From: an uncultured Thiotrichaceae bacterium
GTDB taxonomy: Bacteria > Pseudomonadota > Gammaproteobacteria > SZUA-229
NCBI GenBank assembly: GCA_964531165.1
Contig: CAZHEA010000005.1
Coordinates: 16,858-80,857, forward strand
Length of the DNA stretch: 64,000 bases
Direction: 5' to 3'
The translations under genes were made by a program, and so were the position numbers. Below the pieces are notes generated by a model that did no database searches, was not told where the DNA came from, and saw only the letters and a program-made list of their open reading frames with translations. Positions 8,926 to 63,049 of the stretch are shown here, piece by piece (within the stretch, counting starts at the first letter, position 1; each line of letters opens with the position of its first letter).

Positions 8926-9501
8926 ATGAAAAACGATCGGATTAAGTCAGTTAGTAACTACGCTTTATGTTTATTTTTGCTTGTCACTGGCTCGGCACAG
9001 GCTGCAATTGTAAACTTTACCATTTCTGGCAATGTAGAAATCGCTGAACCCAATAATCCATTTGCTTTATTAGCTAACTCAACGATATCTGCATCTGGTA
9101 CTTATGATGACAGTGTAATCGGTGCTGGCTTATCGTTTATCGACTTTTCAACAATCACTAACAGTATGCAAATAACGGTTGGAAACACAATATTTACTGA
9201 TGACATGTCAACTATCCCTGATAATGGTCTGTTTTTTCAAGATGGTATGTTTGACGGGCTGAGCTATCGCTCTATACAGACTAATATCTCATTTTCATCA
9301 TCTGGCTTTGCCGATATGATTTTCAATGGCGGTGTGCCTGATAGTTTTGATAACACGTTAATCGCAGAGTCAACGTACATTAAAGGAAAATGGGATGCAG
9401 CTAGCTTTGAAGTTACGCCTGTTCCTGTTCCTGCCGCTTTATGGTTATTTGGCTCAGGCCTGATATTTTTAAGCGGAATAAGCCGTCGCAGAAAAAGCTA
9501 A
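8926..9501 (+). CDS. secreted protein with PEP-CTERM-type (VPVPAA variant) C-terminal sorting signal
   Basis: N-terminal signal peptide (LLVTGSAQA). The C-terminus 'TPVPVPAALWLFGSGLIFLSGISRRRKS' has the Pro motif, a TM helix and an Arg cluster, the tripartite exosortase sorting-signal architecture. Confidence 0.7.
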   Translation: MKNDRIKSVSNYALCLFLLVTGSAQAAIVNFTISGNVEIAEPNNPFALLANSTISASGTYDDSVIGAGLSFIDFSTITNSMQITVGNTIFTDDMSTIPDNGLFFQDGMFDGLSYRSIQTNISFSSSGFADMIFNGGVPDSFDNTLIAESTYIKGKWDAASFEVTPVPVPAALWLFGSGLIFLSGISRRRKS

Positions 9502-9582: not shown

Positions 9583-9783
9583 ATGGATAAACCCAATAAA
9601 GAGCAAAGCATCGATCAGAACCGTCGTGATTTTGTAAAGAAAACCGCATATACAGCACCTGCTATTGTGACTATGGCTGCTATCCCATCATTTGCATCTG
9701 CTGGCTCTTCAAATAGCCACAAACTGGTTGGTAACAGACCACGCCCTGGTACACCGCCATCACAACAGCCAACCCCAAGATAA
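9583..9783 (+). CDS. 66-aa micro-protein with twin-arginine (Tat)-like leader; candidate modified-peptide precursor
   Basis: GAGAGGA Shine-Dalgarno 5 nt before the ATG. 'NRRDFVKK' matches the Tat consensus S/T-R-R-x-F-L-K. The h-region is TAYTAPAIVTMAAIPSFASA with A-x-A before G. The remaining 26 aa are GSSNSHKLVGNRPRPGTPPSQQPTPR. A hairpin follows. Confidence 0.5.
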   Translation: MDKPNKEQSIDQNRRDFVKKTAYTAPAIVTMAAIPSFASAGSSNSHKLVGNRPRPGTPPSQQPTPR

Positions 9784-9795
9784 AAATTTTATATC

Positions 9796-9820
9796 ACCCA
9801 TCCGCTTTCTGCGGGTGGGT
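9796..9820. terminator. hairpin between convergent genes (possible bidirectional terminator)
   Basis: ACCCATCCGC (9796-9805), loop TTTCT, GCGGGTGGGT (9811-9820). This is a 10-bp stem with one G-T pair. A/T-rich runs flank both sides but there is no tight T-tract. Confidence 0.45.
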
Positions 9821-9856
9821 AGTACTACATTCCCATTTTTTAAACTTGATTAAATC

Positions 9857-10696
9857 TCAACTGTTTTTATTTAACAGACGCTTTACCTGTTCGCAGGTTT
9901 TATCCAGATGGTTTGATTTAAGAACATAACTGTTAACGCCTCTAACGATAGATATTGCAGCTTGCATCCCACTATCGCCTTTATCATGAGCCAGTATATT
10001 GAGACTATTAATAAATAGTTTAGCCGAGGCTTCAGCCGTACTGATTGAGTGTATTTCTGGTTCCTTTATTTCACTATCATATTCAAGGTAAAAAATATGC
10101 TGTAACTTAACAGACTCAAAACGCCCTGAATTTTCTGACTTTACGGGTACATGAATAGTACAACGTGTATGCAAACTATCATCCGGTAGCTCAAACAGCG
10201 GAGGTATCGCCTTTAAACACAATGCATGTGGATAGGGCTCAACATGCATTGTATTCATATCAATCGGAGCCAGTTCATCACTTAAGTAATTAAAGCCGGA
10301 ATTTAGCATTGCCCAGCTGGTCGTTGACTTGCCAGTACCCGAAGGCGCAACTAACAGTAAGCCCTGCCCCTGATACTCTAATGCAGCAGAATGAATAAAC
10401 ACTAAGTCAGAACGAATTTTCTGTAATTCAATCGTCATATCTTTTTCGAAAAAAAAGATAAACTCGCCAATTTCTTTAGTGAAATATTGCGGACCACTCT
10501 CTCTGGAGACACATATTTCATTATCCGCATCATTTCTGCTAATGGTATAAGTTAAGTCAGCAACTTGTTTAGATGTAGGCACTAACATAGCACCATAAAC
10601 AAGCACTAATATCTCTGATAATTCAGTACTACTGACATTAACCTCAATGATACAATTAAAAACTGATAGCGTTAGAAATTGACTATTTTTTTTCAT
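9857..10696 (-). CDS. HPr-kinase-related P-loop kinase (HprK-related kinase A-like)
   Basis: 'IHSAALEYQGQGLLLVAPSGTGKSTTSWAMLNSGFNYLSDELAPID' has the HprK C-terminal-domain pattern: a His/Ala-rich strand, Walker A GxGKS[TS], then LSDE. The start overlaps the PqqD-like gene by 14 nt. Confidence 0.75.
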   Translation of the reverse strand: MKKNSQFLTLSVFNCIIEVNVSSTELSEILVLVYGAMLVPTSKQVADLTYTISRNDADNEICVSRESGPQYFTKEIGEFIFFFEKDMTIELQKIRSDLVFIHSAALEYQGQGLLLVAPSGTGKSTTSWAMLNSGFNYLSDELAPIDMNTMHVEPYPHALCLKAIPPLFELPDDSLHTRCTIHVPVKSENSGRFESVKLQHIFYLEYDSEIKEPEIHSISTAEASAKLFINSLNILAHDKGDSGMQAAISIVRGVNSYVLKSNHLDKTCEQVKRLLNKNS

Positions 10697-10967
10697 TTAA
10701 CAAATTTAAACCCATAAATTGCTTAATAACACCTGAGACATCATCCCTTGCATTGGCTTCAGAAATATCATAATGCTCAACAACCAATGATGTTATATCT
10801 GATACATTATTTTTACCATCGCATTGATGCAAGATAAACGTAGCCGTATCATTTAACTGATGTATAGACTCTTCACTGGTATCAAGGATGAGCGACTCAC
10901 CATCCACATCCTGTAAAACAACATCGGTACGCATACTCGGTATATATGTATTTTCAATCATAGGCAA
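10683..10967 (-). CDS. PqqD-family protein (RiPP recognition element-like peptide chaperone)
   Basis: 94 aa. 'DGESLILDTSEESIHQLNDTATFILHQCDGKNNVSDITSLVVEHYDIS...ARDDVSGVIKQFMGLNLL' follows the PqqD/RRE pattern (beta-strands, then xLNxTAxxIWxxCDG, then a winged helix). Confidence 0.75.
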   Translation of the reverse strand: MPMIENTYIPSMRTDVVLQDVDGESLILDTSEESIHQLNDTATFILHQCDGKNNVSDITSLVVEHYDISEANARDDVSGVIKQFMGLNLLNEKK

Positions 10968-11047
10968 TAAACTTGTATTAAAACAGTTAGTTTAGTTTAT
11001 TATATTCAAAACAGGCTATTAAATATATAAATTAATATTGGTAGAAA

Positions 11048-12178
11048 ATGAAATCACTACTCCCCTTACTTAGCGCAATCAGCCACCAGCAACAAGACTT
11101 AAATATAAGTAGGACACAAGATAATTTAATTGATTTCGCAATCAATGCTGGTATGGGAGCGTATCTTAAATATAGCGCTGAAAACATCCAGCAAACTATT
11201 TCTGCAGAAAGTTATCAACGGTTACTATCAGCCGACCTTACAGCCAAAGTAATCACTTATAGTATTTTAAATTCTTTAAAAGAGGTACTCGCATTCAGTG
11301 AGCAGTGTGAAGATGACATTATATTATTAAAAGGAATCTCTCATTGCCAGCGTTACTACCCTCACCCCTGGTTCAGGATAATGAGCGATATAGATTTACT
11401 GGTATCAGAAAAAGATGTGGCTACACTTGAAAACATCCTGCTAAAGCTGGGCTATCAACAAACATCTAAAAACACACAGGAATTTTATACATCACATCAC
11501 CATAGCATGCCGTTTTATAATAAAAAAAATAATCTATGGATTGAAGTTCACAGCCATTTATTTTCAAAAAGTACGCCGGCTAAGCATGATGAGTTGTTTA
11601 CCCTGGAAAACATTCAAACAAACACTGTTGCAATGTATGACCCCGAATACAATTGTAATATAAAACAGCTATCTACAGAGTTGCATTTAATTTACACCTG
11701 TGTTCATTGGGCCGATGATTTCAATACACACAAAAGCTGTATTCAGTTAACCGATATTGTACTGATGATATTGAATAACAACACCCCGCTAAACTGGGAG
11801 AAAATGAGCAACTGGCTTACAAATACAGCATCAGCATCCAGTGTTTTTTTAGCGTTAAGTTATTTAAATAAATCGAGCATTATAAAAATACCAGATACCT
11901 ATTTTAATCGTGTAAAACTAAAGCATAGTAATATGGCTACTATTAACAGATTAATCTTATATAAAATTATTGACGACTATTTTTCAGGTAAAAAAGATTA
12001 CGGGCGTTTTTTAACAGAAAACAACCTGCTTATAATATGGACAACACTGCTTCAGCCACGATCATCTCTGAATAATATTTTACGACTCCCGGTAAATATC
12101 TTATTTCCACCGGACAATGATGAACGTTTTAAAATAAGTTTAATTGCAAAGAGAATTATAGGCCTTTTTAGAATATAG
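11048..12178 (+). CDS. nucleotidyltransferase-family protein (PF14907 / NTP_transf_5-like)
   Basis: 376 aa. 'LLKGISHCQRYYPHPWFRIMSDIDLLVSEKD' carries the G/S...R..sDiDlLv motif of the uncharacterised nucleotidyltransferase family. It is divergent from the PqqD/kinase pair across an 80-bp spacer. Confidence 0.65.
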   Translation: MKSLLPLLSAISHQQQDLNISRTQDNLIDFAINAGMGAYLKYSAENIQQTISAESYQRLLSADLTAKVITYSILNSLKEVLAFSEQCEDDIILLKGISHCQRYYPHPWFRIMSDIDLLVSEKDVATLENILLKLGYQQTSKNTQEFYTSHHHSMPFYNKKNNLWIEVHSHLFSKSTPAKHDELFTLENIQTNTVAMYDPEYNCNIKQLSTELHLIYTCVHWADDFNTHKSCIQLTDIVLMILNNNTPLNWEKMSNWLTNTASASSVFLALSYLNKSSIIKIPDTYFNRVKLKHSNMATINRLILYKIIDDYFSGKKDYGRFLTENNLLIIWTTLLQPRSSLNNILRLPVNILFPPDNDERFKISLIAKRIIGLFRI

Positions 12179-12209: not shown

Positions 12210-12611
12210 TTACTTTTTAGATTTTGTATTATAGTTGCCTTTATTAGCATGATCTTTCTTTAAAAGATTTAAAAATAACACATAGTGAATATTCACTGCG
12301 GGGAAGCCTTTTCCACAATCAGGCTCAGCACCATAACCTACCCTGACAGGCTTAGAGGTCAACTGTGCCATGCGCAACATTTCAAACATGGCATCAGAGT
12401 GTGGCTGATTTAAATCCAGTTTGTAATCCCAGTCCACATTATTAGCGCATTTAGGACGTTGATTTACCGGGTTATCTAAACGAAACAATACAAGCCCTTG
12501 CTGACTCACATAAATATCTTTTAAATAACCTGTACTTTCATTGGCGAAGGCACTGTGAATAAATAAAGGCAGAATCAGAACACTTAACACAAATACTTTA
12601 AAATTTTTCAT
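12210..12611 (-). CDS. small secreted protein, unknown function (two Cys)
   Basis: Signal peptide MKNFKVFVLSVLILPLFIHSAFA. The start ATG overlaps the stop of the giant upstream gene (TAATG at 12613..12609). No recognisable family. Confidence 0.6.
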   Translation of the reverse strand: MKNFKVFVLSVLILPLFIHSAFANESTGYLKDIYVSQQGLVLFRLDNPVNQRPKCANNVDWDYKLDLNQPHSDAMFEMLRMAQLTSKPVRVGYGAEPDCGKGFPAVNIHYVLFLNLLKKDHANKGNYNTKSKK

Positions 12612-15600
12612 TATGGTACCGCCACAAAACGTGCTGCATCCGCACCCATATAGGTAGTAGAGGGTGGAACAATACCTTCATCTGTAATTTCCAGATAACC
12701 TGCACTGCCCGCGGCAAAATTAAAGGTACCCAGTAAATTCCACTGTCCGAACACACCGGTATCACAATCCTGATCGACTTCAAGCGTTGTTAAGCCAATT
12801 GTCGATTGAATAATATGTTTCACATTCACTGCCCGATTGTAGTAACACGAATTCCATACATACACTTCATAGTTACCAGCTTGCGGTAAATCAGGCGTGA
12901 AACGATAACGATCTACTGCGCCACCAACCGTTGCATAAAGTGAACCTGCACCATAGTGGTCTGAACCACCCGAGCTTACCCAGCTTCCGGATTGTGACGT
13001 ACCCGCCTCATCTGTATCTATTATAAACTCAGAAACAGGTGCCTGCTGTGGATTGGTACCGGCAAGATACTCATCAAGATTAGACACGCCATCATTATCT
13101 GCATCAAGGAATGCATCATTAGGATCTAATGGATCAAGCCCATTGTTGACCTCAAAAAAGTCATCCATCGTATCGCCATCGGTATCCGCACTTAGTGGGT
13201 TAGTGTTCCAGGTTAAAACCTCTGCACCATCCTGTAACCCGTCTGAATCTGAATCAGGATTAAGTGGATCGGTACCTGCAGCTGTCTCGCCATCATTATT
13301 CAAGCCATCACTATCATCATCCAGCAAACCCTGGGACAACACCACAGTAATGGTTGACGTTGCACTGGCACTGCCATTTTCACTGTCTGTTACTGTTGCT
13401 GTGACGCTATGAACACCTACTCCCGGCACAAATGTAAAGCTGTTGCCATTCGTACCGGTACCACTTAAGTCATCAAGCCAGTTGATCATGGCACTTAAAT
13501 CACCGTCTTCTGCATCGGTTGCCGTTGCACTAATGGTAATCTGATCACCATCTGTTAATCCTGCACTGGTAGTGGACAGAGTAATCACAGGTAAACTGTT
13601 AACCGCTCCAACCTGAACGAATCGCGCGGCATCTGCACCCATATAGGTAGTTGCCGGAGGGGTTATACCTTCATCTGTAATCTCCAGATAGCCACTGTTG
13701 CCCGCATTAAAGCTAAAGGTGCCAAGCAGGTTCCACTGACCAAATACGCCGGTGTCGCAATCCTGATCAACTTCGATTGTTGTAATGCCGCTCGCATGCT
13801 GAATAATATGCTTCACATTAACTGCGCGATTGCTGTAGCAGGAGTTCCACACATACACTGCATAACTGCTGGTCTGTGGTAAGTCTGGAGTGAAGCGGTA
13901 GCGATCAATAGCTCCACCCACCGTTGCATATAACGAGCCCGCACCATAGTGATCAGAGCCACCCGAGCTATTCCAGTTTCCAGACTGAGATGTTCCCACT
14001 TCATCGGTATCAATAATAAACTCAACAACCGGCGCAGCCGGTGCCTGATTCGGATCAGTGCCTGCCAGGAATTCGTCTAAATTACTTACACCGTCGTTAT
14101 CTGAATCCAGAGCAGCATCACTTGCATCCAATGGGTTCAGACTATTATTCAGTTCAAAGAAATCATCAATGCCATCGCCATCCGTATCGCTACTTAACGG
14201 GTTAGTATTATGTGTCAACACTTCTTCCCCATCAAACAGGCCATCACCATCTGAATCTGGATTAAGTGGATCCGTACCTGCTGCGATTTCAGCATCGGTA
14301 TTCAATCCATCATTATCTTCATCAAGTAAACCTGTGGATAGAACGACTGTAATCGTTGATGTAATGCTACTGCTAGCGTTGCTACTATCGACAACACTTG
14401 CTGTTAGCGTATGCACGCCAAGACCCGGTACAAAGGTAAAACTATTACCCGTTGCCGTCAGGCCACTCAGGTCATCCTGCCAGCTAATGAGCGCACTTAT
14501 GTTACCGTCTTCAACATCATTGGCTGTTGCCGTTAATGTAATCTGGTCACCATCGGTCAGGTTGGCGGCTGTACTAGAGATTGTCATTACCGGTGAATTA
14601 TTCACTTCACCTACACGAATAAAGCGAGCCGCATCAGCCCCCATATACGTTGTAGCTGGAGGCACAATACCCTCATCGGTAATTTCAAGATAGCCGGTGC
14701 TTCCGGCATTAAAGCCGTATGTACCCAACAGATTCCATTGTCCGAATACACCGGTATCACAATCCTGATCAACTTCAACTGTAGTAATACCCGCCGCATG
14801 CTGAATAATATGTTTTACATTAACCGCACGGTTGGCATAACAGGAATTCCACACATAAACTTCATAATTACTGGATAACGCAATAGCCGGTGTAAAGCGA
14901 TAGCGATCAACTGCACCACCAACGGTTGCATACAATGAACCCGCACCGTAATGATCTGATCCGCCGGAATTATTCCAGCTTCCCACCTGCGATGTTCCGA
15001 CCTCATCCGTATCAATAACAATGATATCGCCCGGTGCAGGATCGGCTACATTCGGATTTGTACCACTTAAGTATTCTTCAAGATTACTGCGCCCATCACC
15101 ATCATTATCCAGTGCTGCATCCGCCGCATCAATTGGTGTTAAATTATTGGCAATTTCGTAACCATCCGGTATTCCATCACCATCTGTGTCAGCTATCAGT
15201 GGATTGGTAAAATACAAATTCACTTCATTGCCATCATTTAATGCATCCGCATCGGTATCCGGGTTATTTATATCTGTGCCCAGTGCCATTTCTTCTTCAT
15301 CATAAAGACCATCACCGTCCGTATCGACTAAGGTTGGATCTATCACCGTTACCACAATGCTTGCGGTTGATGTAAGGCCACCGCTATCCGTTACCTGAGC
15401 CGTAATCTGATGCACGCCCAAAGTCGGTACAAACGAGAAGTTTAATCCCGTAGCCGTATTAGAGCTGTTATTGTCAGACCAGCTAACAGATGCGCTCAAA
15501 TCACCGTCGATCACATCTGAAACCGTTGCACTGACCGATAGAGTTGCACTGATATCCAGACTGAAATCCTGTTGAACAATAGCCAGATTCGGTGCGGCAT

Positions 15601-18600
15601 TAATAATGCCCGTACCCGCCAGATACTCGTCCAGATTACTGATACCATCTGCGTCTATATCTGCTGCCGCATCATTAACCAGAGGATCCAGTCCCGCCTG
15701 AATTTCATAAGCATCAGGCATTCCATCATTATCAGTATCGGCTGAAACAGCCGATGTATTCAGAGTATAAATCTCATAACCATCCAGCAAGCCATCACCA
15801 TCCGTGTCTGCATTTAGTGGATCGGTTCCATAAATAATTTCATCACTATCACGTAAATTATCTGAATCCGAATCCTTATTCACATCACCCCATCCGGATA
15901 CAAAATCTGTTGAGTCAATACCGGCACGATCCATTGCCGCTTTTGGATTAAACTTAAACGGTGTGGCACCAAAATTAATGCGATTAGTTAACACACCCTG
16001 GCCCTGTGTATTGCCATAAAGCATTGGATGCAACGGTGTAAAGACATCCGGTAACACCATTGTGTGAATGATTTCGTCAAATAAGATGACGTGTATCACC
16101 GGCCGTGCTGCACGATAATCAACTACAAAACCGTAGTAGTACGCGCTGAGATCAAAATCAGTTATAAAATTAAGGTTACGCCATATGCCGATCATAGAGT
16201 TTAACGACATGGAAGGCTGTTCCGGATCAAATGGATATGGGTTAGTTCGGCCATATTGAGTTGTAACACCTTGACCCGCACCATACGAAGAATTGCTACC
16301 GGCAACCAGACGATCCAGTAAACGGTGAGCTTCAAAATAACGGAATTCGCCAATCATGCCCTGGTTAGCACGAATCGCCATTTTTTCATCAATGGCATAA
16401 GCCGCTGATAAGTTATCTGCACTTAAAGTAATTCCATCGCCTTCGCTACCGTCTTTTAATAAAGTCACTTCACTGAACTGCTTAACCGTCGGACGACCTG
16501 TATAAGTATGCACACCACCCCAGCCCATACCCATAAACTCGGCACCTGCATTACCCGCATTAAACATCAGGTAGTTAGCCGGGAAATTAAACGGCGCATT
16601 ATTAGGATCATCACCCGCATTAAGGGTAATTTGTGCCGTGGAACCTGCAGTACCTGTACCAAAGGCCATTACGTATAAGTCACCGGTTATGTTTGGAAGT
16701 GCAACAGAATTTAGTAATAACTCAAAACCATCCGTGCCGGTGACAATAGGATAAACCACCGGACTCGTACCGGTATAATCGACCGCCAGGCCATAATACT
16801 GATTGATGGATAGCTGGGTAAATGTTTGCTGAACGGTGCCGTTATATAAAATACGACCATCAGTTGTCAGCCCCATACTTTCCAGATCAGTACCCGCCGC
16901 TGCGTTCAGCGGTGCATTGGCAGACGCAACTCCAATACCATAATCACCCTGTGCAACCTGTCGTTGCGCTTCAATGTAATACCAGCCCGAACCCGCACTT
17001 ATTATTTGAGTACCCCTGACGGCTCGAGATGTTGCTTCAGTAAAGGTTGCCGATAACCCTGTGGCATCGATAACAACCGATGCATACTTATCAGCGTCAT
17101 TTAACTGGGTTTCAGTCGGTCCACCCGGATAAGAATTAGGGTTATTTGAATTGGTACCATTTACAAACTCATCCAGATTAGTAAAGCCATCGCCATCCGT
17201 ATCCAGTGAACTGTCATTTACCAATGGATCTGAAGCATGGCTAACTTCATAGCCATCACTGATACCATCTGAATCTGAATCAATGTTTAGAGGATCGGTC
17301 AGTGTTTGATTAACTTCAACACCGTCACTCAGGCCATCAAGATCTGTATCACTTATTAATGGGTCTGTACCTAATAGTGCTTCTATATCATCCGTCAGCC
17401 CATCATTGTCAGTATCAACAGCGGTAAAGTTAACAATTGTTACCGCTTTAACAGCAAAGCCCTGCTCATTTAGTACTTCAGCTGTAATGGTGTGGCTTGC
17501 AATCGTACTGGATGTAACACTAAAGTTGCTGCCGGTTGCCGTTAAAGCAGAAGCTGAATCACTCCAGTTAATCGTGCTGGATATATCATTACCCTGCCGA
17601 TCTTTTGCCACAGCAGTCAGAGTTAAACTCGTACCGACATTGGCACTTAAGTTGGCGGATGTAATGGCGACGGTTGTCTGTGCAACCCAGCCGTTATAAA
17701 TCTGAGCGGTTCCCGCAACACCTGTACTTGAAAGAATAGTCTTTACATCATAAACAAAAGGCTGGACGACTAAATCCTGCGCGCTATTAATAGTTTGCTG
17801 CACGCCGGTTGTAGTTTGATTACCATAAACCAGAATGTGCAAGGGCCCGGTTACCTGATCCATTAACTGGGTGAACATCAGAGTATCGCCGGCAATCAGA
17901 TAAACTACCGGGTTGGCTCCTGTGTAATCCACCGCCACTCCGAAAGTCGCAGCTGATGAAATAATCGTATTGTTAGAACCTAATTGACTAGTATTGTTGT
18001 AATACACCAACCCCAGTGAGTTCATACCTATACTCTGGTCACTATCTCCACCAAAGTTCGCTAGCGTTGCAGCCGCTGTTGCGACTCCGAAACCCATATT
18101 TCCCGAAGCAACCTGACGTGTACCTTCGAAATAATAGAAGCCACTACCCGGTTGTATCGCTACATTTGAACGCACGGCTCGATGAGTACTACCGGCAGTG
18201 TAGGTTACGCCAAACCGGTCAGCGGTTAAATTAATACTCGGATCTTTATCCGTTGCACTCAGGCGTGCCGGCGAATTAGGGTAAGAGAAAATATCATTAG
18301 GGTCAGTGCCCTGTTGAAACTCATCGAAATTACTGTAACCATCATTATCCGCATCATTCGCCGCATCAACAGCATCCAGCGGGTTCAGTAAGTTATTCAC
18401 TTCATATAAATCAGATAACCCATCGCCATCGGTATCTGCTGATAATGGGTTTGTACCGTAGAGATTAACTTCATCGCCATCATTAATACCATCCGCATCG
18501 GTGTCAGCTACCAGTGGGTCCGTACCCAGTATACTTTCCTGGCTATCTGACAGGCCGTCACTATCTGTATCAATGTCTACAAACTGAATGGTAACGCTGA

Positions 18601-20686
18601 TTGAAACAGGTTGTGCCTGCTCATCATTTACCTGTGCGCTAACGATGTAACTTGCTACCAGAGAATCCGTTAACGTAAAACTTGCTCCACTTCCACTCAA
18701 GCCAGTATCCGTACTCCAGCTAACCGTAGAAGATATGTCATCACCCGCGGCGTTCGTCGCAACGGCATTAAGCGTTATGCTCTGCCCGACTGTCACCGAC
18801 TGATCACCACCATTAATGGCTACGCGGGTAACCGGAATCGACTCCTGCCAGCCATCAATAATAGAAGCTGCTCCACTAATTCCCGCTGCACTTAAGATTG
18901 ATCGAACATCATAGGTGAATGGGCTAGCCGCTAAATCAAGTGCTGTATTAACAGTCTGTTGAACACCTGTTGTATTTTGATAACCATAAACCAGTATATG
19001 CAAAGGCGTAGTCACCTGATCCATCACCTGAGTAAACATCAGCGTGTTACTGGCAATAATGTAAACAATCGGGTTAACGCCACGATAGTCTACTGCTATA
19101 CCGTAAGTATCTGTTCCACTGATACTGGTGTTAGCCGAACCCAGTTGGTTGGTCTGGTTGTAATAAATATATCCCAGCGCATTAATACCAATACTTTGAG
19201 CTGAATAACCACCATAGTTAACCAGACTGGCGGATGCCGTTGCAACTCCGAAGCCCATATTATCTGTGGCAATTTCACGACGCCCTTCAAAATAATAAAA
19301 ACCACTACCCGCGGCAATGGACTGGTCAGTACGCACTGCACGGTGTGTTGAGCCCGCTGAGTAAATCACCCCAAAACGATCAGCTGTTAAACTGATACTC
19401 GGATCTTTATCGGTAGTGCTCAGTCTCGCCGGCGCATTAGGATAAGAAAAGCTATCATTAGGGTTAGTGCCAAACTGATATTCACTTAAACTGGAGTAGC
19501 TGTCCGCATCCGGGTCTAACAGTGCATCACCTGCAGCTAACGGATCTAACCCATTATTCACCTCATAGGCATCCGGCAGACCATCGTTGTCCGTATCCGC
19601 ATTTAATGGGTCGGTCAGTGTCGTATTCACTTCTACACCGTCAGTCAATCCATCAGCATCCGAATCAGGATTATTCGGATCAGTACCCAGTCCGGCTTCC
19701 ACGATATCAGATAAGCCATCCGCATCTGCATCCGCATCGATAAAGTTAACGTTAACCGTTGAGGTAACAGGCTGGTTATTAATATCTAAAACCTGCGCTG
19801 TAACCACATGAGTCGCAAGCTGACTATCGGTAATCGTAATTGAAGAACCGGTTGCACTGGCGCCCTTATCTGTACTCCAGCTTATGCTGGAAGAAACATC
19901 GATGCCGTTTTCATCAGTGGCAAGCGCACTGATAGTGACAGACTGGCCCAATGAAACATTACGATCACCATTAACAATACTGACCTGCGCATTAGCCGAC
20001 CAGCCATTAATAATTCCTGCTGTACCCGTTACACCCGCTGCACTTAATATGCCACTAACATCATAGGTAAATGGAGCATTCACAAGATCAGCCGCCGCAT
20101 TTATGGTTTGCTGAACGCCAGTCGTATTTTGATAGCCATAAGCCAGAATGTGTAATGGTGTAGTTACCTGATCCATTACCTGAGTGAACATTAATGTATT
20201 GCTGGCAATTAGATAAACAACCGGATTAACACCGCGATAGTCCACCGCAATACCAAATGTATCAGTACCGGTAATACTGCTATTAGCCGAGCCTAACTGG
20301 TTAGTCTGATTGTAATAAATATAACCCAGTGCATTGATGCCAATACTATCTGTGCCGAAGCCACCATAGTTAGTTAGACTGGCAGTTGAAGTTGCGACAC
20401 CAAAGCCTAAGTTGGCTACTGCAATTTCACGACGGCCTTCATAATAATAAAAACCACTAGCCGGTTGAATGGATATATCGGAACGTACACCACGGTGCGT
20501 ATTACCTGCAGAAAATATGACGCCCAGACTATCTGCACTGAGAGTAATACTGGAATCTTTATCAGTAGAGCTGAGTACAGCCGGGGCTGCATAAATTATT
20601 GATGGGAAGACAAGAATACAAAAAACGAACAGTATGCGTGTAAACTGATTGATAAACACGCCGGACTTTAAACCTTTCATTAACAC
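12611..20686 (-). CDS. 2691-aa modular secreted protein: SP-[SPRY-like/Ig-like/TSP3-type Ca-binding]x3-SPRY-like x2-TSP3-[Ig-like/TSP3/golvesin-C-like]x3
   Basis: Uninterrupted 8.1 kb ORF with a Sec signal (FPSIIYA|AP). There are five roughly 200-aa modules with 'SGFYYYEGRREI / SGWYYIEAQRQV / GEFRYFEAHRLL' and 'GIAVDYRG..PVVY' (SPRY/B30.2-like). Seven blocks of four D-x-D-x-D-G-x-x-D motifs give 28 by my count. There are six roughly 85-aa Ig/PKD-like modules. Three roughly 135-aa modules read 'GSW.SSGGSDHYGAGSLYATVGGA.DRYRFTP....Y.VYVWNSCY.NRAVNVKHIIQ...G.TT.EVDQDCDTGVFGQWNLLGTF.F.AG..GYLEITDEG..PP.TTYMGADAARF', resembling golvesin C-terminal-like CBM-type domains. Confidence 0.9.
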   Translation of the reverse strand: MLMKGLKSGVFINQFTRILFVFCILVFPSIIYAAPAVLSSTDKDSSITLSADSLGVIFSAGNTHRGVRSDISIQPASGFYYYEGRREIAVANLGFGVATSTASLTNYGGFGTDSIGINALGYIYYNQTNQLGSANSSITGTDTFGIAVDYRGVNPVVYLIASNTLMFTQVMDQVTTPLHILAYGYQNTTGVQQTINAAADLVNAPFTYDVSGILSAAGVTGTAGIINGWSANAQVSIVNGDRNVSLGQSVTISALATDENGIDVSSSISWSTDKGASATGSSITITDSQLATHVVTAQVLDINNQPVTSTVNVNFIDADADADGLSDIVEAGLGTDPNNPDSDADGLTDGVEVNTTLTDPLNADTDNDGLPDAYEVNNGLDPLAAGDALLDPDADSYSSLSEYQFGTNPNDSFSYPNAPARLSTTDKDPSISLTADRFGVIYSAGSTHRAVRTDQSIAAGSGFYYFEGRREIATDNMGFGVATASASLVNYGGYSAQSIGINALGYIYYNQTNQLGSANTSISGTDTYGIAVDYRGVNPIVYIIASNTLMFTQVMDQVTTPLHILVYGYQNTTGVQQTVNTALDLAASPFTYDVRSILSAAGISGAASIIDGWQESIPVTRVAINGGDQSVTVGQSITLNAVATNAAGDDISSTVSWSTDTGLSGSGASFTLTDSLVASYIVSAQVNDEQAQPVSISVTIQFVDIDTDSDGLSDSQESILGTDPLVADTDADGINDGDEVNLYGTNPLSADTDGDGLSDLYEVNNLLNPLDAVDAANDADNDGYSNFDEFQQGTDPNDIFSYPNSPARLSATDKDPSINLTADRFGVTYTAGSTHRAVRSNVAIQPGSGFYYFEGTRQVASGNMGFGVATAAATLANFGGDSDQSIGMNSLGLVYYNNTSQLGSNNTIISSAATFGVAVDYTGANPVVYLIAGDTLMFTQLMDQVTGPLHILVYGNQTTTGVQQTINSAQDLVVQPFVYDVKTILSSTGVAGTAQIYNGWVAQTTVAITSANLSANVGTSLTLTAVAKDRQGNDISSTINWSDSASALTATGSNFSVTSSTIASHTITAEVLNEQGFAVKAVTIVNFTAVDTDNDGLTDDIEALLGTDPLISDTDLDGLSDGVEVNQTLTDPLNIDSDSDGISDGYEVSHASDPLVNDSSLDTDGDGFTNLDEFVNGTNSNNPNSYPGGPTETQLNDADKYASVVIDATGLSATFTEATSRAVRGTQIISAGSGWYYIEAQRQVAQGDYGIGVASANAPLNAAAGTDLESMGLTTDGRILYNGTVQQTFTQLSINQYYGLAVDYTGTSPVVYPIVTGTDGFELLLNSVALPNITGDLYVMAFGTGTAGSTAQITLNAGDDPNNAPFNFPANYLMFNAGNAGAEFMGMGWGGVHTYTGRPTVKQFSEVTLLKDGSEGDGITLSADNLSAAYAIDEKMAIRANQGMIGEFRYFEAHRLLDRLVAGSNSSYGAGQGVTTQYGRTNPYPFDPEQPSMSLNSMIGIWRNLNFITDFDLSAYYYGFVVDYRAARPVIHVILFDEIIHTMVLPDVFTPLHPMLYGNTQGQGVLTNRINFGATPFKFNPKAAMDRAGIDSTDFVSGWGDVNKDSDSDNLRDSDEIIYGTDPLNADTDGDGLLDGYEIYTLNTSAVSADTDNDGMPDAYEIQAGLDPLVNDAAADIDADGISNLDEYLAGTGIINAAPNLAIVQQDFSLDISATLSVSATVSDVIDGDLSASVSWSDNNSSNTATGLNFSFVPTLGVHQITAQVTDSGGLTSTASIVVTVIDPTLVDTDGDGLYDEEEMALGTDINNPDTDADALNDGNEVNLYFTNPLIADTDGDGIPDGYEIANNLTPIDAADAALDNDGDGRSNLEEYLSGTNPNVADPAPGDIIVIDTDEVGTSQVGSWNNSGGSDHYGAGSLYATVGGAVDRYRFTPAIALSSNYEVYVWNSCYANRAVNVKHIIQHAAGITTVEVDQDCDTGVFGQWNLLGTYGFNAGSTGYLEITDEGIVPPATTYMGADAARFIRVGEVNNSPVMTISSTAANLTDGDQITLTATANDVEDGNISALISWQDDLSGLTATGNSFTFVPGLGVHTLTASVVDSSNASSSITSTITVVLSTGLLDEDNDGLNTDAEIAAGTDPLNPDSDGDGLFDGEEVLTHNTNPLSSDTDGDGIDDFFELNNSLNPLDASDAALDSDNDGVSNLDEFLAGTDPNQAPAAPVVEFIIDTDEVGTSQSGNWNSSGGSDHYGAGSLYATVGGAIDRYRFTPDLPQTSSYAVYVWNSCYSNRAVNVKHIIQHASGITTIEVDQDCDTGVFGQWNLLGTFSFNAGNSGYLEITDEGITPPATTYMGADAARFVQVGAVNSLPVITLSTTSAGLTDGDQITISATATDAEDGDLSAMINWLDDLSGTGTNGNSFTFVPGVGVHSVTATVTDSENGSASATSTITVVLSQGLLDDDSDGLNNDGETAAGTDPLNPDSDSDGLQDGAEVLTWNTNPLSADTDGDTMDDFFEVNNGLDPLDPNDAFLDADNDGVSNLDEYLAGTNPQQAPVSEFIIDTDEAGTSQSGSWVSSGGSDHYGAGSLYATVGGAVDRYRFTPDLPQAGNYEVYVWNSCYYNRAVNVKHIIQSTIGLTTLEVDQDCDTGVFGQWNLLGTFNFAAGSAGYLEITDEGIVPPSTTYMGADAARFVAVP
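12614..15598 (-). repeat. three tandem ~1.0 kb coding repeats (aa ~1697-2691 of the giant protein)
   Basis: Units are roughly 14615-15598, 13616-14614 and 12614-13615, each Ig-like + 4x TSP3-type + golvesin-C-like. By eye about three-quarters or more nucleotide identity over the stretches I compared (not computed). Confidence 0.85.
17117..20587 (-). repeat. three tandem ~1.15 kb coding repeats (aa 34-1190 of the giant protein)
   Basis: Unit boundaries fall near 19438/19439 and 18280/18281 ('PNAPARLSTTDKDPSI' and 'PNSPARLSATDKDPSI' restart the unit). The units are clearly homologous at protein level and diverged at the DNA level. Confidence 0.85.
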
Positions 20687-21026: not shown

Positions 21027-21857
21027 TTAAAAGCGCTTAATCCAGTTAGTCATTGCCAAAAAAGCTTTATTGCGCTGCTCAAGCAATGCATAAATATGAT
21101 CTGAATAGGCAAAATACTCCACTTCAACATCACTACAGAATGCATGAGAGTTGAACGTATCTACAAATTGCTGTGCGTAGTTATAATACTCACGCACACC
21201 ACTTGTATAAATGTATAAATGCTTATTACCTTTATTGTGCAAGCTTTCCATATCATCAATATAATCCTGCTTGTCTGGCAGCTCCCAGTAATACGCATCA
21301 GCTCCGCTTTCACCTGAACCGGATTTCCTGCCGACCGGCAAAAACTTCATCATAATACGGCCTATTAAACCTAACATACGTTTCGGGCTAGCCAGTATCG
21401 GCGCATAACGCTTAATATAAAAACGCCTGGTGGGGTAACCGTAACCATCGAGTAAAATTGAACCGGTAATATCCTCATATTTTACCGCCGCACGATGAGC
21501 TAAATCAGCTCCCGTACATAAGCCCATTACAATAATTTTTGCTGGTGCTACTTTTTCTTTAATAAATTCAATGGCCTCTCCTACATCCTGTAAGTTTCGA
21601 TCTTTGAATGACTGACTATTTGACGCTAATTTTTCACTATCGCCAATACCAGATAAATCAAAACGAAATGAAGCGAAACCCGCCTCCGCTAAATATAGAG
21701 AAAACTCTTTATTCATACGTAACGGTCCAGGACGATGCACCAGACCTGAATTTAAGATCAGAACCAAAGGCCTATCCTGATTTTGTTGCTCACTCTCGGG
21801 CTCAGATAAAATCCCAACCAGATTTTGTTTCTCACCAAATAGAAATGCCTTATCCAT
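21027..21857 (-). CDS. alpha/beta-fold protein resembling exosortase-A-system-associated hydrolase 1; Cys at nucleophile elbow
   Basis: 'FLFGEKQNLVGILSEP...PLVLILNSGLVHRPGPLRMNKEFSLYLAEAGFASFRFDLSGIGDS' fits the hydr1_PEP N-terminal pattern as I recall it. The nucleophile elbow reads 'IIVMGLCTGADLA' (G-L-C114-T-G). Confidence 0.6.
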   Translation of the reverse strand: MDKAFLFGEKQNLVGILSEPESEQQNQDRPLVLILNSGLVHRPGPLRMNKEFSLYLAEAGFASFRFDLSGIGDSEKLASNSQSFKDRNLQDVGEAIEFIKEKVAPAKIIVMGLCTGADLAHRAAVKYEDITGSILLDGYGYPTRRFYIKRYAPILASPKRMLGLIGRIMMKFLPVGRKSGSGESGADAYYWELPDKQDYIDDMESLHNKGNKHLYIYTSGVREYYNYAQQFVDTFNSHAFCSDVEVEYFAYSDHIYALLEQRNKAFLAMTNWIKRF

Positions 21858-21861
21858 TATC

Positions 21862-22647
21862 CTACCCTATTACTTCTATAATTTTATCAATTGACGAGTT
21901 TGGCAGAACTTTAGCTTCTATCTTATTCGCATTTTTCCATTCTGACTCTGTATCGAAATTATGCAGCGTCGCTTTTTTTAAAAAAGTATCATCACTTATT
22001 AAGTGCTCTGCATTATAACTATCGGCATAACTAAAAATATCAATCCTTTTAGTTTTAATTTTTTCTAAATCAGATAATTTTAACGACCCGACTTTATCTC
22101 TGAAACTAAGCGGAAAATCATGGCCAACGAGCTCTGTAGAAGAATCAGTGTTTGACAAAAAGTCCAGATCAAAACGATTAGGATCAACCAGCATCTGATT
22201 ATGTATGGTTTGCAGATCCTTTAAATAAGCTTCGCCATCTACTACCGGATCCCATAAGACCAAACGACTGAACTTATAAGACTCCGAAGCAAATGAGGCT
22301 AACAAAGCTCCATAGCGATAACCCACTACACTGACTTTTCGAGTTGCCGATATTGTTTTAATTTCATCGCATGACAGGGTTATATCTTTGATAAACTGCT
22401 CAACAGAAACCTCATGACTCTGCCCTGATGAATCACCTGTTGCAAAATAATCAAAACGTAAAACATGATAACCGTTAGCCGCTAATTTTTTTGCCAGAAC
22501 GCGCATTACACTGTGCGTTCTACCATATTCAAAACCAATAGGATTACATAATACAATTGATGTATCCTGTAATTGCGAGGTTGCAGAAGGCTGGTGATGA
22601 ATACCAAACAAAGGCTTTTCCGCATCACCAAAAAACAAGGGTATCAC
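21862..22647 (-). CDS. alpha/beta-fold protein resembling exosortase-A-system-associated hydrolase 2; no nucleophile at elbow
   Basis: 'PLFGIHHQP...IVLCNPIGFEYGRTHSVMRVLAKKLAANGYHVLRFDYFATGDSSG' fits the hydr2_PEP-like pattern. The elbow reads 'VSVVGYRYGALLA' (G-Y-R111-Y-G). Confidence 0.6.
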   Translation of the reverse strand: MIPLFFGDAEKPLFGIHHQPSATSQLQDTSIVLCNPIGFEYGRTHSVMRVLAKKLAANGYHVLRFDYFATGDSSGQSHEVSVEQFIKDITLSCDEIKTISATRKVSVVGYRYGALLASFASESYKFSRLVLWDPVVDGEAYLKDLQTIHNQMLVDPNRFDLDFLSNTDSSTELVGHDFPLSFRDKVGSLKLSDLEKIKTKRIDIFSYADSYNAEHLISDDTFLKKATLHNFDTESEWKNANKIEAKVLPNSSIDKIIEVIG

Positions 22648-22701
22648 TCAACTACTCCTTAAAAGAACACACATGCGTATATCCTGATATTAAAATTTAA
22701 A

Positions 22702-25700
22702 TTATTTAAAAACCTTTTTAAATATTGAATTAATCATGGATTTCTTTTTCGTATCTGTTTGCTGAACTTCGTTAGAAGAACTATCATCTTCAGCAAACCC
22801 GCACTGCTCTGCCATATGCTCTAACGAATCAAGTATAATAACCCGCGGATTTATTTTTATTCCAGTTATATCTTTTACCTTCATTATCACCTGCATAGAA
22901 AGCAATGAGTGCCCACCGATATCAAAAAAGTTATCATGCACACTAATGTTTTCAATCGCTGTATCGAGTACTTCAGCCCATATTTTTGCAAGTTGTTTAC
23001 CCGCATAGGTTTCAGGTAAAACTTTTTCATCGTTATCCGCACTATTATCTGCAAATGCATCGGGTAACGCTTTACGATCAACCTTACCGTTTGGTGTTAG
23101 AGGCAACTCCTCTAATTCGACAAAATGTTGTGGCAACATATAATCAGGCAAATCATTTTTAATTAAATCACGCAGTGAAGTTGGCGTAACAGTAACGCCT
23201 TCTGCCACCACAATATAGGCAACCAACCTGGGGTCACCGGCTCTGATTTCATTAACAACCACAACAGCCTGTTCAATCTCGCTCTGTTGTGCAAGTACCG
23301 CTTCTATCTCACCCAGTTCAATTCGAAAACCCCGCACCTTAACCTGATTATCAATTCTCTGGCTATATTCAAGGTCACCACTTTGATGGAACTTAACCGC
23401 ATCACCGGTTCGATACAAACGTTCATCACCTGTACTAAACGGGCTTAAAACATAACGCTCCTCGGTCAGATCATCACGATTTAAATACCCCTTGGTTACT
23501 CCGTCGCCACCAATATATAACTCACCCGGCACACCAACCGGAAGTGGACGTAAATGCTCATCGAGTACATAAAATTGCGTATTATTGATTGGCTTACCTA
23601 TGAGTATAGGGGCATTTGCATCGGTTATTTTATAACAACTTGACCAGACCGTGGTTTCAGTCGGCCCATACATGTTCCATACTTCTTTAACTCGCGGCAA
23701 TAATTCAACCAGCAGATCACGAGGCATGGCTTCACCCCCACAAAGCACTTTAAGCGACGCATCACCCTTCCACTGACAGGCCAGTAAAAGTCGCCAGGTT
23801 GCCGGAGTTGCCTGCATTATAGAAACATCATGCTCTTCCATTAAATCAACCAGGTCATCACCATCGATCGCTTCATCCGTAGTCGCTATCACAACTGTCG
23901 CACCCTGACTCAATGGTAAATACAGTTCTAAAACTGCAATATCAAATGATAATGTCGTCACCGCTAACAAAGTATCATCTGCGGAAAGACCGGGTTTTTT
24001 TGCCATGCTTAAAATAAAATTACCCGCAGCATTATGATGAACCATTACACCTTTAGGCTTACCCGTAGAGCCGGAAGTGTAAATAATATAGGCCAGGTCA
24101 TCAGCACTAATTTTTATATTCGGGTCAGTCACCGGCTGTGAGTTTATCGATTCTTTCTCTACATCAACCTGCACCGGTTTTGTAATATCGGGTAACTGAA
24201 TGCGCTTTAATACACTGGACTGAGTTACCACAAGCTCTGCATTGGAATTTTCCAGCATGTATTGAATACGATCCTGCGGATACTCAGGATCAAGAGGAAT
24301 ATAACAGGCGCCCGCTTTTAAAATACCCAGTGTCGCTATGATCATGTCCAGCGAACGCTCAAGACATACACCAATTAGTGCATTATCTTTCACACCCTGA
24401 TTAATCAGGTAATGAGCAAGCTGGTTGGCTTTATCATTTAATTCTTTATATGTTAGTTCCTCATCGTCACAAATCACCGCTACTTTATCTGCGTTATCTT
24501 CACACTGAGCCTCAAATAGCTGATGAATTATTTTTGGTTGACTAAATGAAGCGACCGTTTTATTCCAGTCTTTAGTAACTTTTTCATACTCTGTATCTGA
24601 TAGAATATTTAAATCGGAAATTGGTGCATCTGGATTACTGACAGCATTTTCCAGTAAAATCTGAAAATGCTCTGCAAATCGTTGCAATGTATCATCTTCA
24701 AATATTTCAGAATTGTATTCGAGTAAGCCGCGAATACCATCCTCCGCCTCCCATAGCCAGGCCAGCATATCAAATTTGGCAGACTGATTATGTAGTTTTT
24801 GAGATTTTACATTACAGGCCTCAAGGTTGATTTCCATAGGGGGTTCCTGAAATGTGAAACCAACCTGAAATAACGGATTATAACTGGTATCACGTTTAGG
24901 CTGCAGACCTTCCACGATCATTTCAAAGGGAAAGTCCTGATTGGCATTCGCACTAAATACCATTTTCCGTACACGTTTTAACACCTCATTAAAACTGGGA
25001 TTACCCGATAAGTCGGTAAAAATTGGAATGGTATTTATAAAGCATCCCATGATTTTTTCCAGCTCAGGCTGATGACTTCGATTTGCAAAAGGTGTCCCGA
25101 CTGACACTTCACTCTGCTTCGAATAAATACCCAGTAAAACAGCATAACCTGCCATCAACGTAATAAACATTGACACACTTTGCTGACGTGAAAGTGCTTT
25201 TAAGTTATTTTTTAATGATAGCGGAAACCATAAGTGATATTCCCTGCCGATCATTGCTTGCATCGGCGGTCTTTGACTATCCAGTGGCAAGTCCAGATAC
25301 TCAGCTTTGCCCTGCAACTGTTGTAACCAGAAATCCAGCTTAGGCGCTAATTGCTCATGCGTCTGATGTTGATTCTGCCAAACGGAATAATCCGCATATT
25401 GTAATTCAGGGTCAACTAAAGATGACGACTGATTATTCAGATATGTTTTATAAAGTAGCGTCAACTCTTCCGCAAACTGCACAATAGAGATATGGTCTAA
25501 AATAATATGATGGAAATTTAAAAACAAGATACATGAAGATTCAGAGCGTTTTATTACACTTGCACGAATCAGCGGGCCTTCTGATAGGTCAAACAGGCGC
25601 ACGGTTTCTTTCTCAATATATTCTTTAACACTTTGTTCAGAATTTAAATCGTCGATCAATGGCAGATCTATCGTCATTTGTGGGCGAACAATTTGAACCA

Positions 25701-25923: not shown

Positions 25924-25956
25924 TTTTAGTCCTGTTTACTTAGGTCAATGTTTAAA

Positions 25957-31494: not shown

Positions 31495-31578
31495 TATGTT
31501 TTCTTTAATCCTGATTAACGGGTCTATCTATTCACACGTCTATTATCTGACCTGCTTAGCCACTGTATTTCTGTCATG

Positions 31579-47361: not shown

Positions 47362-47387
47362 CTTTATTTATCCACTAACATGCATGA

Positions 47388-48533: not shown

Positions 48534-48547
48534 TTTATTGCACCAAT

Positions 48548-53220: not shown

Positions 53221-53221
53221 T

Positions 53222-55871: not shown

Positions 55872-55884
55872 AAATAATTCACAT

Positions 55885-58226: not shown

Positions 58227-58281
58227 TCCACTCTTACGCTCAAAATTTCACACTATTAAAGGCTCTGCTTGAGGATATATT

Positions 58282-59280: not shown

Positions 59281-59293
59281 AGCATGGTGTCCT

Positions 59294-60583: not shown

Positions 60584-60599
60584 TATCTATGACTATTAT

Positions 60600-63034: not shown

Positions 63035-63049
63035 ATTAAACCCGAATCC

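Follow-up and report, generated by a model that had tools for sequence, protein, structure and literature searches.

A probable four-gene pathway for a modified linear peptide with a Tat-like leader in an uncultured Thiotrichaceae bacterium

We analysed a 64,000-nucleotide stretch of contig CAZHEA010000005.1 from an uncultured Thiotrichaceae bacterium (assembly GCA_964531165.1), hereafter the window, and in it a compact group of genes whose products resemble peptide-tailoring enzymes. An initial annotation had described three of these genes as an orphan triad, and its coordinates were confirmed: a PqqD-like open reading frame (ORF) of 94 amino acids (aa) overlaps by 14 nt a 279-aa ORF carrying the motifs APSGTGKSTT and YLSDE, and an 80-bp spacer (10968..11047) parts the PqqD-like ORF from a divergent 376-aa ORF with the motif RIMSDIDLLV, all according to the window's ORF list. 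The minus strand holds a P-loop kinase of the HprK/phosphoenolpyruvate carboxykinase (PEPCK) fold that resembles LppK (9857..10696) and a discrete PqqD-family recognition element (RRE) for peptides that are made on the ribosome and modified after translation (RiPPs; 10683..10967, counted from a TTG). The plus strand holds an LppN-like nucleotidyltransferase of the Pol-beta fold and of family PF14907 (NTP_transf_5; 11048..12178). A fourth gene, at 9583..9783 on the plus strand, was assigned by membership in a profile family and encodes a 66-aa precursor peptide (SNSHKLVGNRPRPGTPPSQQPTPR), in which a leader resembling a twin-arginine translocation (Tat) signal and containing an RRE motif is followed by a hypervariable tail. 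We propose, with a probability of about 0.7, that the locus is a four-gene pathway for a ribosomally made, modified linear peptide and a distant homolog of the clusters for linear polyphosphorylated peptides (LPPs) of the Bacillota.

The PqqD-family protein matched PF05402 at 52.1 bits (cut-off 23.4). Its best NCBIfam model was the lasso PqqD chaperone NF033530 (E 1.7e-9), and its best solved relative was the lasso B1 protein TfuB1 (6jx3, E 8e-4). The likelier start of the gene is an ATG at 10961, two codons past the TTG, which gives a product of 92 aa, and the gene is translationally coupled to the kinase gene through the 14-nt overlap. The family models that the initial annotation had put forward gave a divided result: PF05402 and PF14907 were matched above their cut-offs, whereas the kinase scored below every curated cut-off, with 70.8 bits and E 1e-19 on TIGR04352, its best curated match (cut-off 200), and 17.3 bits on PF07475 (cut-off 33.3), and the PqqD-family protein gave no match to TIGR04353 at E ≤ 0.1 (cut-off 35 bits). 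TIGR04353 was present in the library, where it matches an LPP RRE at 22.9 bits.

A profile search of the PDB with the kinase returned only matches at the level of the P-loop, with ABC transporters scoring equal to HprK. Because this search was not discriminating, we carried out a fold search with a model of the kinase. The AlphaFold2 model had a mean predicted local distance difference test score (pLDDT) of 92.2 and, in Foldseek, aligned along both domains with PEP carboxykinases (E 1e-7, TMq ~0.6), and its match to HprK/P (E 1e-4) covered the catalytic domain. As modelled, the kinase has the PEPCK/HprK kinase fold, which supports at fold level the HprK-like reading made from the motifs. Residues H102, G120xGKSTT126 and Y137xSDE141 are invariant in 23 homologs, and because of this fold and the invariant P-loop and SDE residues the enzyme looks active. 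Its homologs are numerous: there are more than 450 close ones, and an exhaustive profile search gave 339 representatives at E ≤ 1e-30, or about 339 clusters at 50% identity. They carry the precomputed Pfam label PF27840 ‘ScmC’; a literature search on SynChlorMet, ScmC, HprK-related kinases and TIGR04352 found nothing relevant.

The nucleotidyltransferase matched PF14907 at 110.6 bits (cut-off 31.2). Residues K95-G96, D114xD116, E166 and H168 are invariant in its family, as is a G-S...DxD...E set, and the enzyme is therefore probably active. Its AlphaFold2 model (pLDDT 90.8) found only remote matches in the fold search, to ANT(2'')-Ia and LnuA-type nucleoside monophosphate (NMP) transferases (E ~5e-3), and a sequence search of the PDB gave no matches. 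Hydroxyl groups are the acceptors to which enzymes of this kind transfer NMP. One homolog of the window protein, P0280 (577 aa), has PF14907 fused to methyltransferase domains of the ICMT/PEMT type (PF04140, PF04191), a domain arrangement that hints at further chemistry tied to this nucleotidyltransferase family.

The small peptide gene is judged to be genuine on several grounds. It has a good ribosome-binding site, GAGAGGA, 6 nt 5' of its ATG. Between the window and locus L001, one of its closest relatives, the 29-codon conserved block differs by 13 synonymous and 3 non-synonymous codons, and the leader block is under purifying selection. Public gene callers also predict genes of this family, which has at least 349 cluster representatives in a database of 5.8 billion proteins. 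No representative contains a Pfam domain, and all are unnamed or ‘hypothetical’ except for two stray JGI labels. The locus tag of one member, IT488_13685, adjoins that of a kinase homolog, IT488_13690.

The logo of 82 family members reads S-R-R-x-F-[VLI]-K-K-A-A-Y-x-A-P-x-[IV]-L-T-L-x-A-x-P-[SA]-F-A-x-x-G-S, and three elements can be placed on the plus strand of the window. The first is the twin-arginine box R14-R15-D-F-V-K-K (9622..9642; family consensus S-R-R-x-F-[VLI]-K-K), in which logo positions R5 (window R15) and R/K4 are conserved in 82/82 members, F7 in 72/82 and K9 in 67/82. When patterns were counted independently, 70 of 82 peptides had RR and 13 had KR, and the strict box S/T-R-R-x-F-L-K occurred in 38. 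The second is the predicted RRE-binding motif Y23-x-x-P26-x-I28-V-T30 (9649..9672; family Y-x-x-P-x-[IV]-L-T), with logo Y13 (window Y23) present in 81/82 and P16 (window P26), the I/V of the motif and T/S20 (window T30) each in 82/82. The form [Y/W]xxPx[L/V/I] is the motif bound by lasso and LPP RREs (PMC13381572, PMC10368454). The third is a predicted processing and modification junction, S36-F37-A38 / S39-A40-G41-S42 (9688..9708), with a (-3,-1) site of the signal peptidase I type followed by Gly-Ser. Small residues occupy positions -3 and -1 before x-x-G-S in 70/81 peptides, and logo G31 (window G41) and S32 (window S42) are each found in 80/82. Ser42 (9706..9708) is the predicted phospho-acceptor; the Ser of Gly-Ser is the only serine outside the twin-arginine box that is common to the family.

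Beyond Gly-Ser the tails are hypervariable, 5–76 aa long with a median of 25, rich in Gly, Pro, Lys, Arg and Asn, and mostly basic. Ser and Thr are absent from 10/80 tails, and no residue is conserved at the C-terminus. Distant phyla share two tail types, from which we conclude that some tails are under constraint: GNNGVGNGxDPQPPGNPPxNDGPGTGPGNPGN in five loci (L009, L029, L030, L055, L067) and GNNGIGQEKRGxxDGPPPGLAxKP...FNDNG in four (L037, L042, L047, L059). The recurrence of these two types points to discrete subfamilies of product.

We next compared 80 loci from reference genomes together with six assembly contexts, in which ORFs were called and iterated profile searches were run. They span Gamma-, Beta- and Deltaproteobacteria, Binatia, Acidobacteriota, Acidimicrobiia, Planctomycetales, Methylomirabilota and Verrucomicrobia. 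Among the 52 loci with at least 3 kb on each side of the kinase (the full-flank set), the PqqD gene was present in 52, the small peptide gene in 51 and the PF14907 gene in 41, an association beyond chance. The proposal of a stand-alone module for recognition and phospho- or nucleotidyl transfer was borne out across homologous loci, whereas the description of the triad as an orphan was not: the peptide is a conserved fourth gene, and a class without a cyclase, the LPPs, has already been published (PMC13381572). Over all loci the peptide profile matched 73/84, and nine of the 11 without a match have the relevant flank cut by a contig end.

The usual order on one strand is pqqD, peptide, kinase, and in most loci the small peptide ORF lies inside a gap of 250–600 bp between the PqqD gene and the kinase. 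This order is altered in the window and in its nearest relatives (L001, L002, L005 and L084), where the peptide gene has moved past the kinase gene and the two converge. Two or three peptide genes occur in 9/73 peptide-bearing loci. Tandem precursor arrays with a common leader and differing tails were seen in L013 (8709-9941) and also in L019, L034, L045, L055, L057 and L067. The PF14907 gene is missing from about a fifth of the full-flank set (11/52 loci), and we therefore regard it as dispensable or accessory. The loci with no PF14907 gene within 6 kb (L011, L013, L024, L030, L036, L043, L051, L062, L065, L070, L071) all retain the PqqD gene and kinase, and all but one retain the peptide.

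The wider surroundings of the module vary. Of the 44 loci that offer 6 kb of flank or more, at least 18 have a gene for nucleotide sugars or polysaccharides no further than 8 kb away, L085 being a clear example. Those identified among the recurrent neighbours are an epimerase/dehydratase, UDP-glucose dehydrogenase, a WcaJ-type transferase, DegT and an oxidoreductase of the GFO type. Also found repeatedly near the module were a short-chain dehydrogenase, two clusters without a Pfam domain, and a sigma-54 response regulator of generic type together with a PAS/HisKA kinase. Some loci (L003, L086) sit in unrelated settings, among transport and amidohydrolase genes. The trend is towards polysaccharide and nucleotide-sugar genes generally, and we saw no specific tie to exosortases.

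The nearest experimentally characterised system is the LPP class, published in May 2026 by Popov et al. in Nat Commun and stated there to be ‘restricted to the Bacillota’ (PMC13381572). It is the only class described that joins an RRE, an HprK-type kinase and a nucleotidyltransferase without a cyclase. Its clusters, lppA-K-B-S-D-N, are embedded in capsule loci and encode an HprK-like kinase (LppK), a discrete RRE (LppB), a signal peptidase resembling SipW (LppS), an exporter resembling MsbA (LppD) and an NTP transferase (LppN) (PMC13381572). One to three precursors per cluster share the N-terminus YxxPxVLxHQxIxFETxxS and have variable C-termini; binding of the YxxP motif by LppB was established by crystal structure and mutagenesis, LppS cuts after T(-1), and LppK puts several phosphates on core Ser3 (PMC13381572). 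The LPP kinase target is thus a serine three residues past the leader cleavage site, and lasso kinases act on a C-terminal Ser.

Using the published precursor motif as a degenerate DNA pattern, we retrieved 48 genuine LPP loci, all from Bacillota, of which 35 contained LppK, 33 LppD, 31 LppS and 30 LppN; a back-translated FETAQSNWK pattern, from the lppA junction of P. alginolyticus, gave no match. Profiles of the module family matched LppK (4e-12), LPP RREs (2e-16) and LppN (6e-44). In the reverse direction the LppN profile matched 59 module loci, including the window at 1.8e-15, and the LppK profile matched 24. LppK itself scored 30 bits on TIGR04352, lower than the window kinase.

The leaders could also be aligned by distance from the tyrosine. 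Taking Tyr as position 0 in both families, Pro falls at 3 in LPP and 3 in the module family, Val/Ile at 5 and 5, Leu at 6 and 6, Phe at 13 and 14, and Ser at 18 and 19. Because these positions align, the family Ser of Gly-Ser would equal the proven LPP phosphosite, core S3. The module-family leader does not fully match the published motif YxxPxVLxHQxIxFETxxS. We also considered homology between the tails and LPP cores on account of their shared G/N/P-rich composition, and rejected it: an LPP-core profile scored real tails no better than shuffled ones.

The two remaining LPP components, the peptidase and the exporter, were sought with profiles of their own. The LppS profile, built from the 31 LPP loci that contain the gene (a representative is classed by NCBIfam as TIGR02228, sigpep_I_arch), gave no match in the 84 loci or anywhere in the window. 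The LppD profile found nothing in the window and matched 10/84 loci, some of these matches being importer ATPases, and an MsbA-type profile had no match across the whole 64 kb.

From these comparisons we propose the following pathway. The substrate is very probably the 66-aa product of 9583..9783, since virtually all related loci encode such a peptide alongside the PqqD protein and the kinase. By homology with lasso B1 and LppB, the PqqD-family RRE would bind the leader at Y-x-x-P-x-[IV]. The kinase would then phosphorylate Ser42 of Gly-Ser, possibly several times; this residue, 19 past the Tyr, would correspond to LPP core Ser3, and we favour it as the phosphosite with rather less confidence than we place in the peptide as substrate. 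The PF14907 enzyme might extend the phosphate with a nucleotide-activated group, for example hexoses as in pseudomycoidin, an assignment by analogy that is doubtful and the least secure step of the scheme.

For export, the sequence of the leader suggests that it could double as a Tat signal, with its S-R-R-x-F-[VLI]-K-K box, hydrophobic core and [SA]-F-A site; the RRE-binding motif falls within the hydrophobic region of this putative signal. Cytoplasmic modification of a cargo does not preclude its transport by Tat. The modified peptide might thus leave through the housekeeping Tat system and be cut by the general signal peptidase I (LepB), a route that we put at slightly under even odds. If Tat stands in for LppD and signal peptidase I for LppS, the lack of a SipW-like peptidase and an MsbA-like pump would follow. 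A more speculative extension, which we advance tentatively, is that one leader does two jobs, RRE recognition and service as a working Tat signal: the PqqD protein, in the way of Tat proofreading chaperones, would hold the precursor in the cytoplasm until the kinase, and the nucleotidyltransferase in loci that have it, had modified the Ser beside the cleavage site, after which housekeeping Tat would export it and signal peptidase I release it.

Several observations weigh against this pathway or parts of it. Nearly all family members come from metagenome-assembled genomes of uncultured organisms, and two loci (L016 and L083) have an adjacent PqqD gene and kinase with no peptide gene on the contig, even by a loose motif search. 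Against the LppK profile the window kinase reached no better than E 6e-3. LPP precursors are not matched by the leader profile, so the homology of the leaders rests on a short motif and its spacing. Two further hydroxyl residues, at logo positions T20 and Y13, are likewise invariant, and the kinase could act on one of these rather than on the Ser. As for the Tat signal, the window peptide scored 14.0 bits on TIGR01409 against a cut-off of 16.7, only 13/55 peptide members matched that model at E < 0.1, 17/82 peptides have a Lys inside the hydrophobic stretch, and some tails are only 5–7 aa, very small for a Tat cargo. Finally, the one LPP experiment on record saw no activity of LppN in its heterologous host (PMC13381572), and the role of PF14907 is therefore uncertain even in the reference system.

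We weighed four other explanations of the locus. The one that survives best, though we consider it unlikely, treats the peptide as an ordinary Tat-exported or membrane-anchored micro-protein, with the PqqD protein as a hold-back chaperone in the manner of TorD or DmsD, the kinase and nucleotidyltransferase as regulators of export or anchoring, and the tail as a spacer. It would account for a conserved block that has all the features of a Tat signal sequence and whose only NCBIfam matches, weak ones, are Tat-signal models, for tails that are unconstrained down to 5 aa, and for the lack of a dedicated protease or exporter. Generic Tat signals, however, do not fix the positions of Tyr, Pro, Thr, Gly and Ser across phyla, and the YxxPx[IV] motif occurs here with an enzyme set homologous to a proven RiPP pathway. 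Multiple precursors with differing tails, and tail types shared across phyla, also fit a RiPP core better than a spacer. This explanation overlaps with the pathway proposed above and differs from it mainly in which part of the peptide matters.

The initial annotation had named as candidate substrates not only the micro-ORF, a choice supported by its conservation with the kinase, but also the neighbouring PEP-CTERM cargo and a giant adhesin-like protein. That the enzymes act on one of the latter two, or on a polysaccharide or lipid intermediate of the exosortase/exopolysaccharide (EPS) system, now appears very unlikely. The idea draws on the window itself, where the module is flanked by a PEP-CTERM protein and a surface protein of 2691 aa and stands 35 kb from an XrtA EPS locus, as well as on the frequency of polysaccharide and nucleotide-sugar genes noted above and the capsule setting of LPP clusters. 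Yet both proteins are syntenic only in the closest relatives, and many loci lie in unrelated contexts such as those of L003 and L086. A discrete RRE moreover implies a motif-bearing peptide substrate, and only the micro-ORF family has the motif. The suggested link to the exosortase sorting system did not hold either: a PEP-CTERM-type protein lies within 8 kb in only 8/84 loci, which led us to reject an exosortase/PEP-CTERM accessory role, and the recurrent sigma-54 regulator is not the PEP-CTERM regulator PrsR (368 bits against the TIGR02915 cut-off of 502), nor is the recurrent histidine kinase PrsK.

Orphan tailoring genes of a lasso pathway (paeninodin/pseudomycoidin or Bsf type), with cyclase, B2 protease and precursor elsewhere in the genome, are a less probable source of the module still. 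The same three protein types do occur together in kinase-bearing lasso clusters (PMC8498205), and the best curated and structural matches of the RRE are lasso B1 proteins. The initial annotation had reported no lasso cyclase, B2 protease or dedicated exporter nearby, and the scans agree. They covered nearly all window ORFs of at least 110 aa with Pfam and NCBIfam (the Pfam scan left aside ORFs of 112 and 119 aa, two larger non-ribosomal peptide synthetase (NRPS) ORFs and the giant protein (NCBIfam only)), and among the scanned ORFs there were no Asn-synthetase-like, transglutaminase-like or ABC-exporter genes. Nor did a cyclase or B2 protease appear among the recurrent neighbours in the 84 loci: the ten recurrent neighbour clusters scanned with Pfam were sugar, regulatory or dehydrogenase genes, or had no domain. 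Because the absence holds across homologous loci, the lasso genes are not simply elsewhere. The module also carries its own precursor, and few of the peptides suit a lasso: whichever core start is taken, only 6–11 of 81 are ring-compatible (a small residue at core position 1 and Asp/Glu at 7–9), and only 7/80 end in Ser, the lasso kinase target. We accordingly rejected the explanation by an incomplete lasso pathway.

An anti-phage defence or toxin-antitoxin-like module is the least probable of the four, since the frequency of nucleotidyltransferase/kinase pairs in defence islands and the patchy phyletic pattern typical of conflict systems noted for LPP (PMC13381572) are set against the absence of any PADLOC model match to the four proteins, a PqqD protein and leader-bearing peptide that point to peptide maturation, and the lack of any phage or mobile-element context seen.

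A GC-rich hairpin (9792..9824) lies between the convergent peptide and kinase genes, with a ViennaRNA folding energy of -20.2 kcal/mol (z = -5.1 against shuffles), and is probably a bidirectional terminator. A scan for consensus terminators passed it over, since its T-run stands apart from the stem. Promoter-like sites were no commoner than in shuffled sequence.

On the 5' side the window contains mfd, a gene for a CsiV-family protein and, directly 5' of the peptide gene, a gene for a 191-aa PEP-CTERM/VPLPA-CTERM protein (8926..9501, plus strand). This arrangement is kept only in the closest relatives, and the product shows a weak likeness to the flocculation-associated PepA (NF033554, E 6e-8, under the cut-off). 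On the 3' side follow a 133-aa ORF (12210-12611), a thrombospondin-repeat protein, two alpha/beta hydrolases, the NRPS genes and, from 45 kb, the XrtA/PEP-CTERM exopolysaccharide locus. The thrombospondin-repeat protein, the giant product considered above, is a secreted protein of 2691 aa (12611-20686, minus strand; the 133-aa ORF lies beside its gene) with internal repeat modules, thrombospondin-type-3 repeats and Golvesin_C-type domains. Its gene is syntenic with the module in L001 and L084, where it is separated from the PF14907 gene by three genes absent from the window, for a GDSL lipase, Acyl_transf_3 and Wzy_C.

Three large NRPS ORFs (1073, 1845 and 1551 aa; 21027-36234, minus strand) lie 3' of the two alpha/beta-hydrolase genes, the first, of 1073 aa, having the domain order condensation-adenylation-thiolation (C-A-T). 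They constitute a separate non-ribosomal peptide cluster about 10 kb from the module. The exopolysaccharide locus (45154-63685, minus strand) is of the XrtA/PEP-CTERM type: cut-offs were passed by its chain-length determinant (332 bits on TIGR03007, cut-off 279) and by its export protein (199 bits on TIGR03027, cut-off 180). Further genes of the locus are for glycosyltransferases, deacetylases, a flippase, Wzy, a tyrosine autokinase and the system ATPase. The window yielded no recognisable exosortase gene, and two large ORFs (735 and 381 aa) could be placed in no family.

If the proposed pathway is correct, it would have several consequences. The module would be the first natural RiPP class to use Tat in place of a dedicated protease and pump; in the literature searched we found no report of a natural RiPP with a twin-arginine leader, and two RRE-mining papers made no mention of kinase-associated or Tat-type precursors. 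It would also join RiPP leader recognition to general protein export, a link for which the same searches offered no precedent, and the Tat-like leader would give a concrete and testable reason for the missing protease and exporter. The range of LPP-type phosphopeptides would then take in, besides the Bacillota, the Proteobacteria and at least six other phyla. The same enzymatic core with a precursor family of its own is widespread in Gram-negative and other, mostly uncultured phyla. The marker used to define LPPs is the archaeal-type (SipW-like) signal peptidase I LppS (PMC13381572), and since the class is defined through this enzyme, peptidase-guided mining would miss the module family. The locus thus offers a minimal four-gene system with a predicted phosphosite, Ser42, and predicted recognition residues, Tyr23 and Pro26.

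Four known systems invite comparison with the module. The HPr-rel-A system, which the initial annotation had mentioned, likewise pairs a PqqD-family protein with an HprK-related kinase, and its kinase model, TIGR04352, is the best curated match of the window kinase. Since neither protein reached the cut-off of its HPr-rel-A model, we rejected membership and regard the module as a sibling family. The chemistry of DUF2282/bufferin-type RiPPs is MNIO-type oxidation, in place of which the module has phospho- and nucleotidyl transfer. These RiPPs resemble the module in having a general export signal at the precursor N-terminus and an RRE-containing partner, and in needing no dedicated exporter or protease (PMC12710340). 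Their precursors have a Sec signal followed by a separate leader region, whereas the module has a predicted Tat-type signal with the RRE motif inside it.

Kinase-bearing lasso clusters of the paeninodin, pseudomycoidin and Bsf types share the three accessory protein types of the module. In lasso systems the RRE recognises a [Y/W]xxP leader motif (PMC10368454), the kinase puts one or more phosphates on Ser, and in pseudomycoidin a PF14907-type enzyme adds hexoses to the phosphate (PMC8498205). The module differs in lacking the cyclase, B2 protease and ABC exporter, in peptides that are not lasso-compatible, and in its likely phosphosite, which lies beside the leader junction and not at a C-terminal Ser.

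The closest likeness is to LPP. Neither family has a macrolactam cyclase; both combine an HprK-like kinase with a PF14907 NTP-transferase and a discrete RRE of the PqqD type, three proteins whose profiles match reciprocally, and both have one to three precursor genes whose products carry a YxxPx[VIL] motif, a Ser 18–19 residues further on and hypervariable, G/N/P/K-rich C-termini. Both also often lie near polysaccharide loci, a shared setting that hints at a common role at the cell envelope or in biofilms. The leaders differ: that of the module is about 14 residues longer, with a median of 20 residues before the Tyr against 6 in LPP, and more hydrophobic (Kyte-Doolittle mean over the 18 residues around and after the Tyr, +1.39 against -0.45). 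It has a twin-arginine box, none being reported in LPP, and its junction reads P-[SA]-F-A-x-x-G-S in place of F-E-T-x-x-S. The module family also lacks the SipW-like LppS and a conserved MsbA-like LppD, and it occurs in Proteobacteria and at least six other phyla, whereas LPPs occur in Bacillota. A Tat-like leader, the lack of a dedicated peptidase and exporter, and an occurrence reaching far beyond the Bacillota thus set the module apart from LPP.

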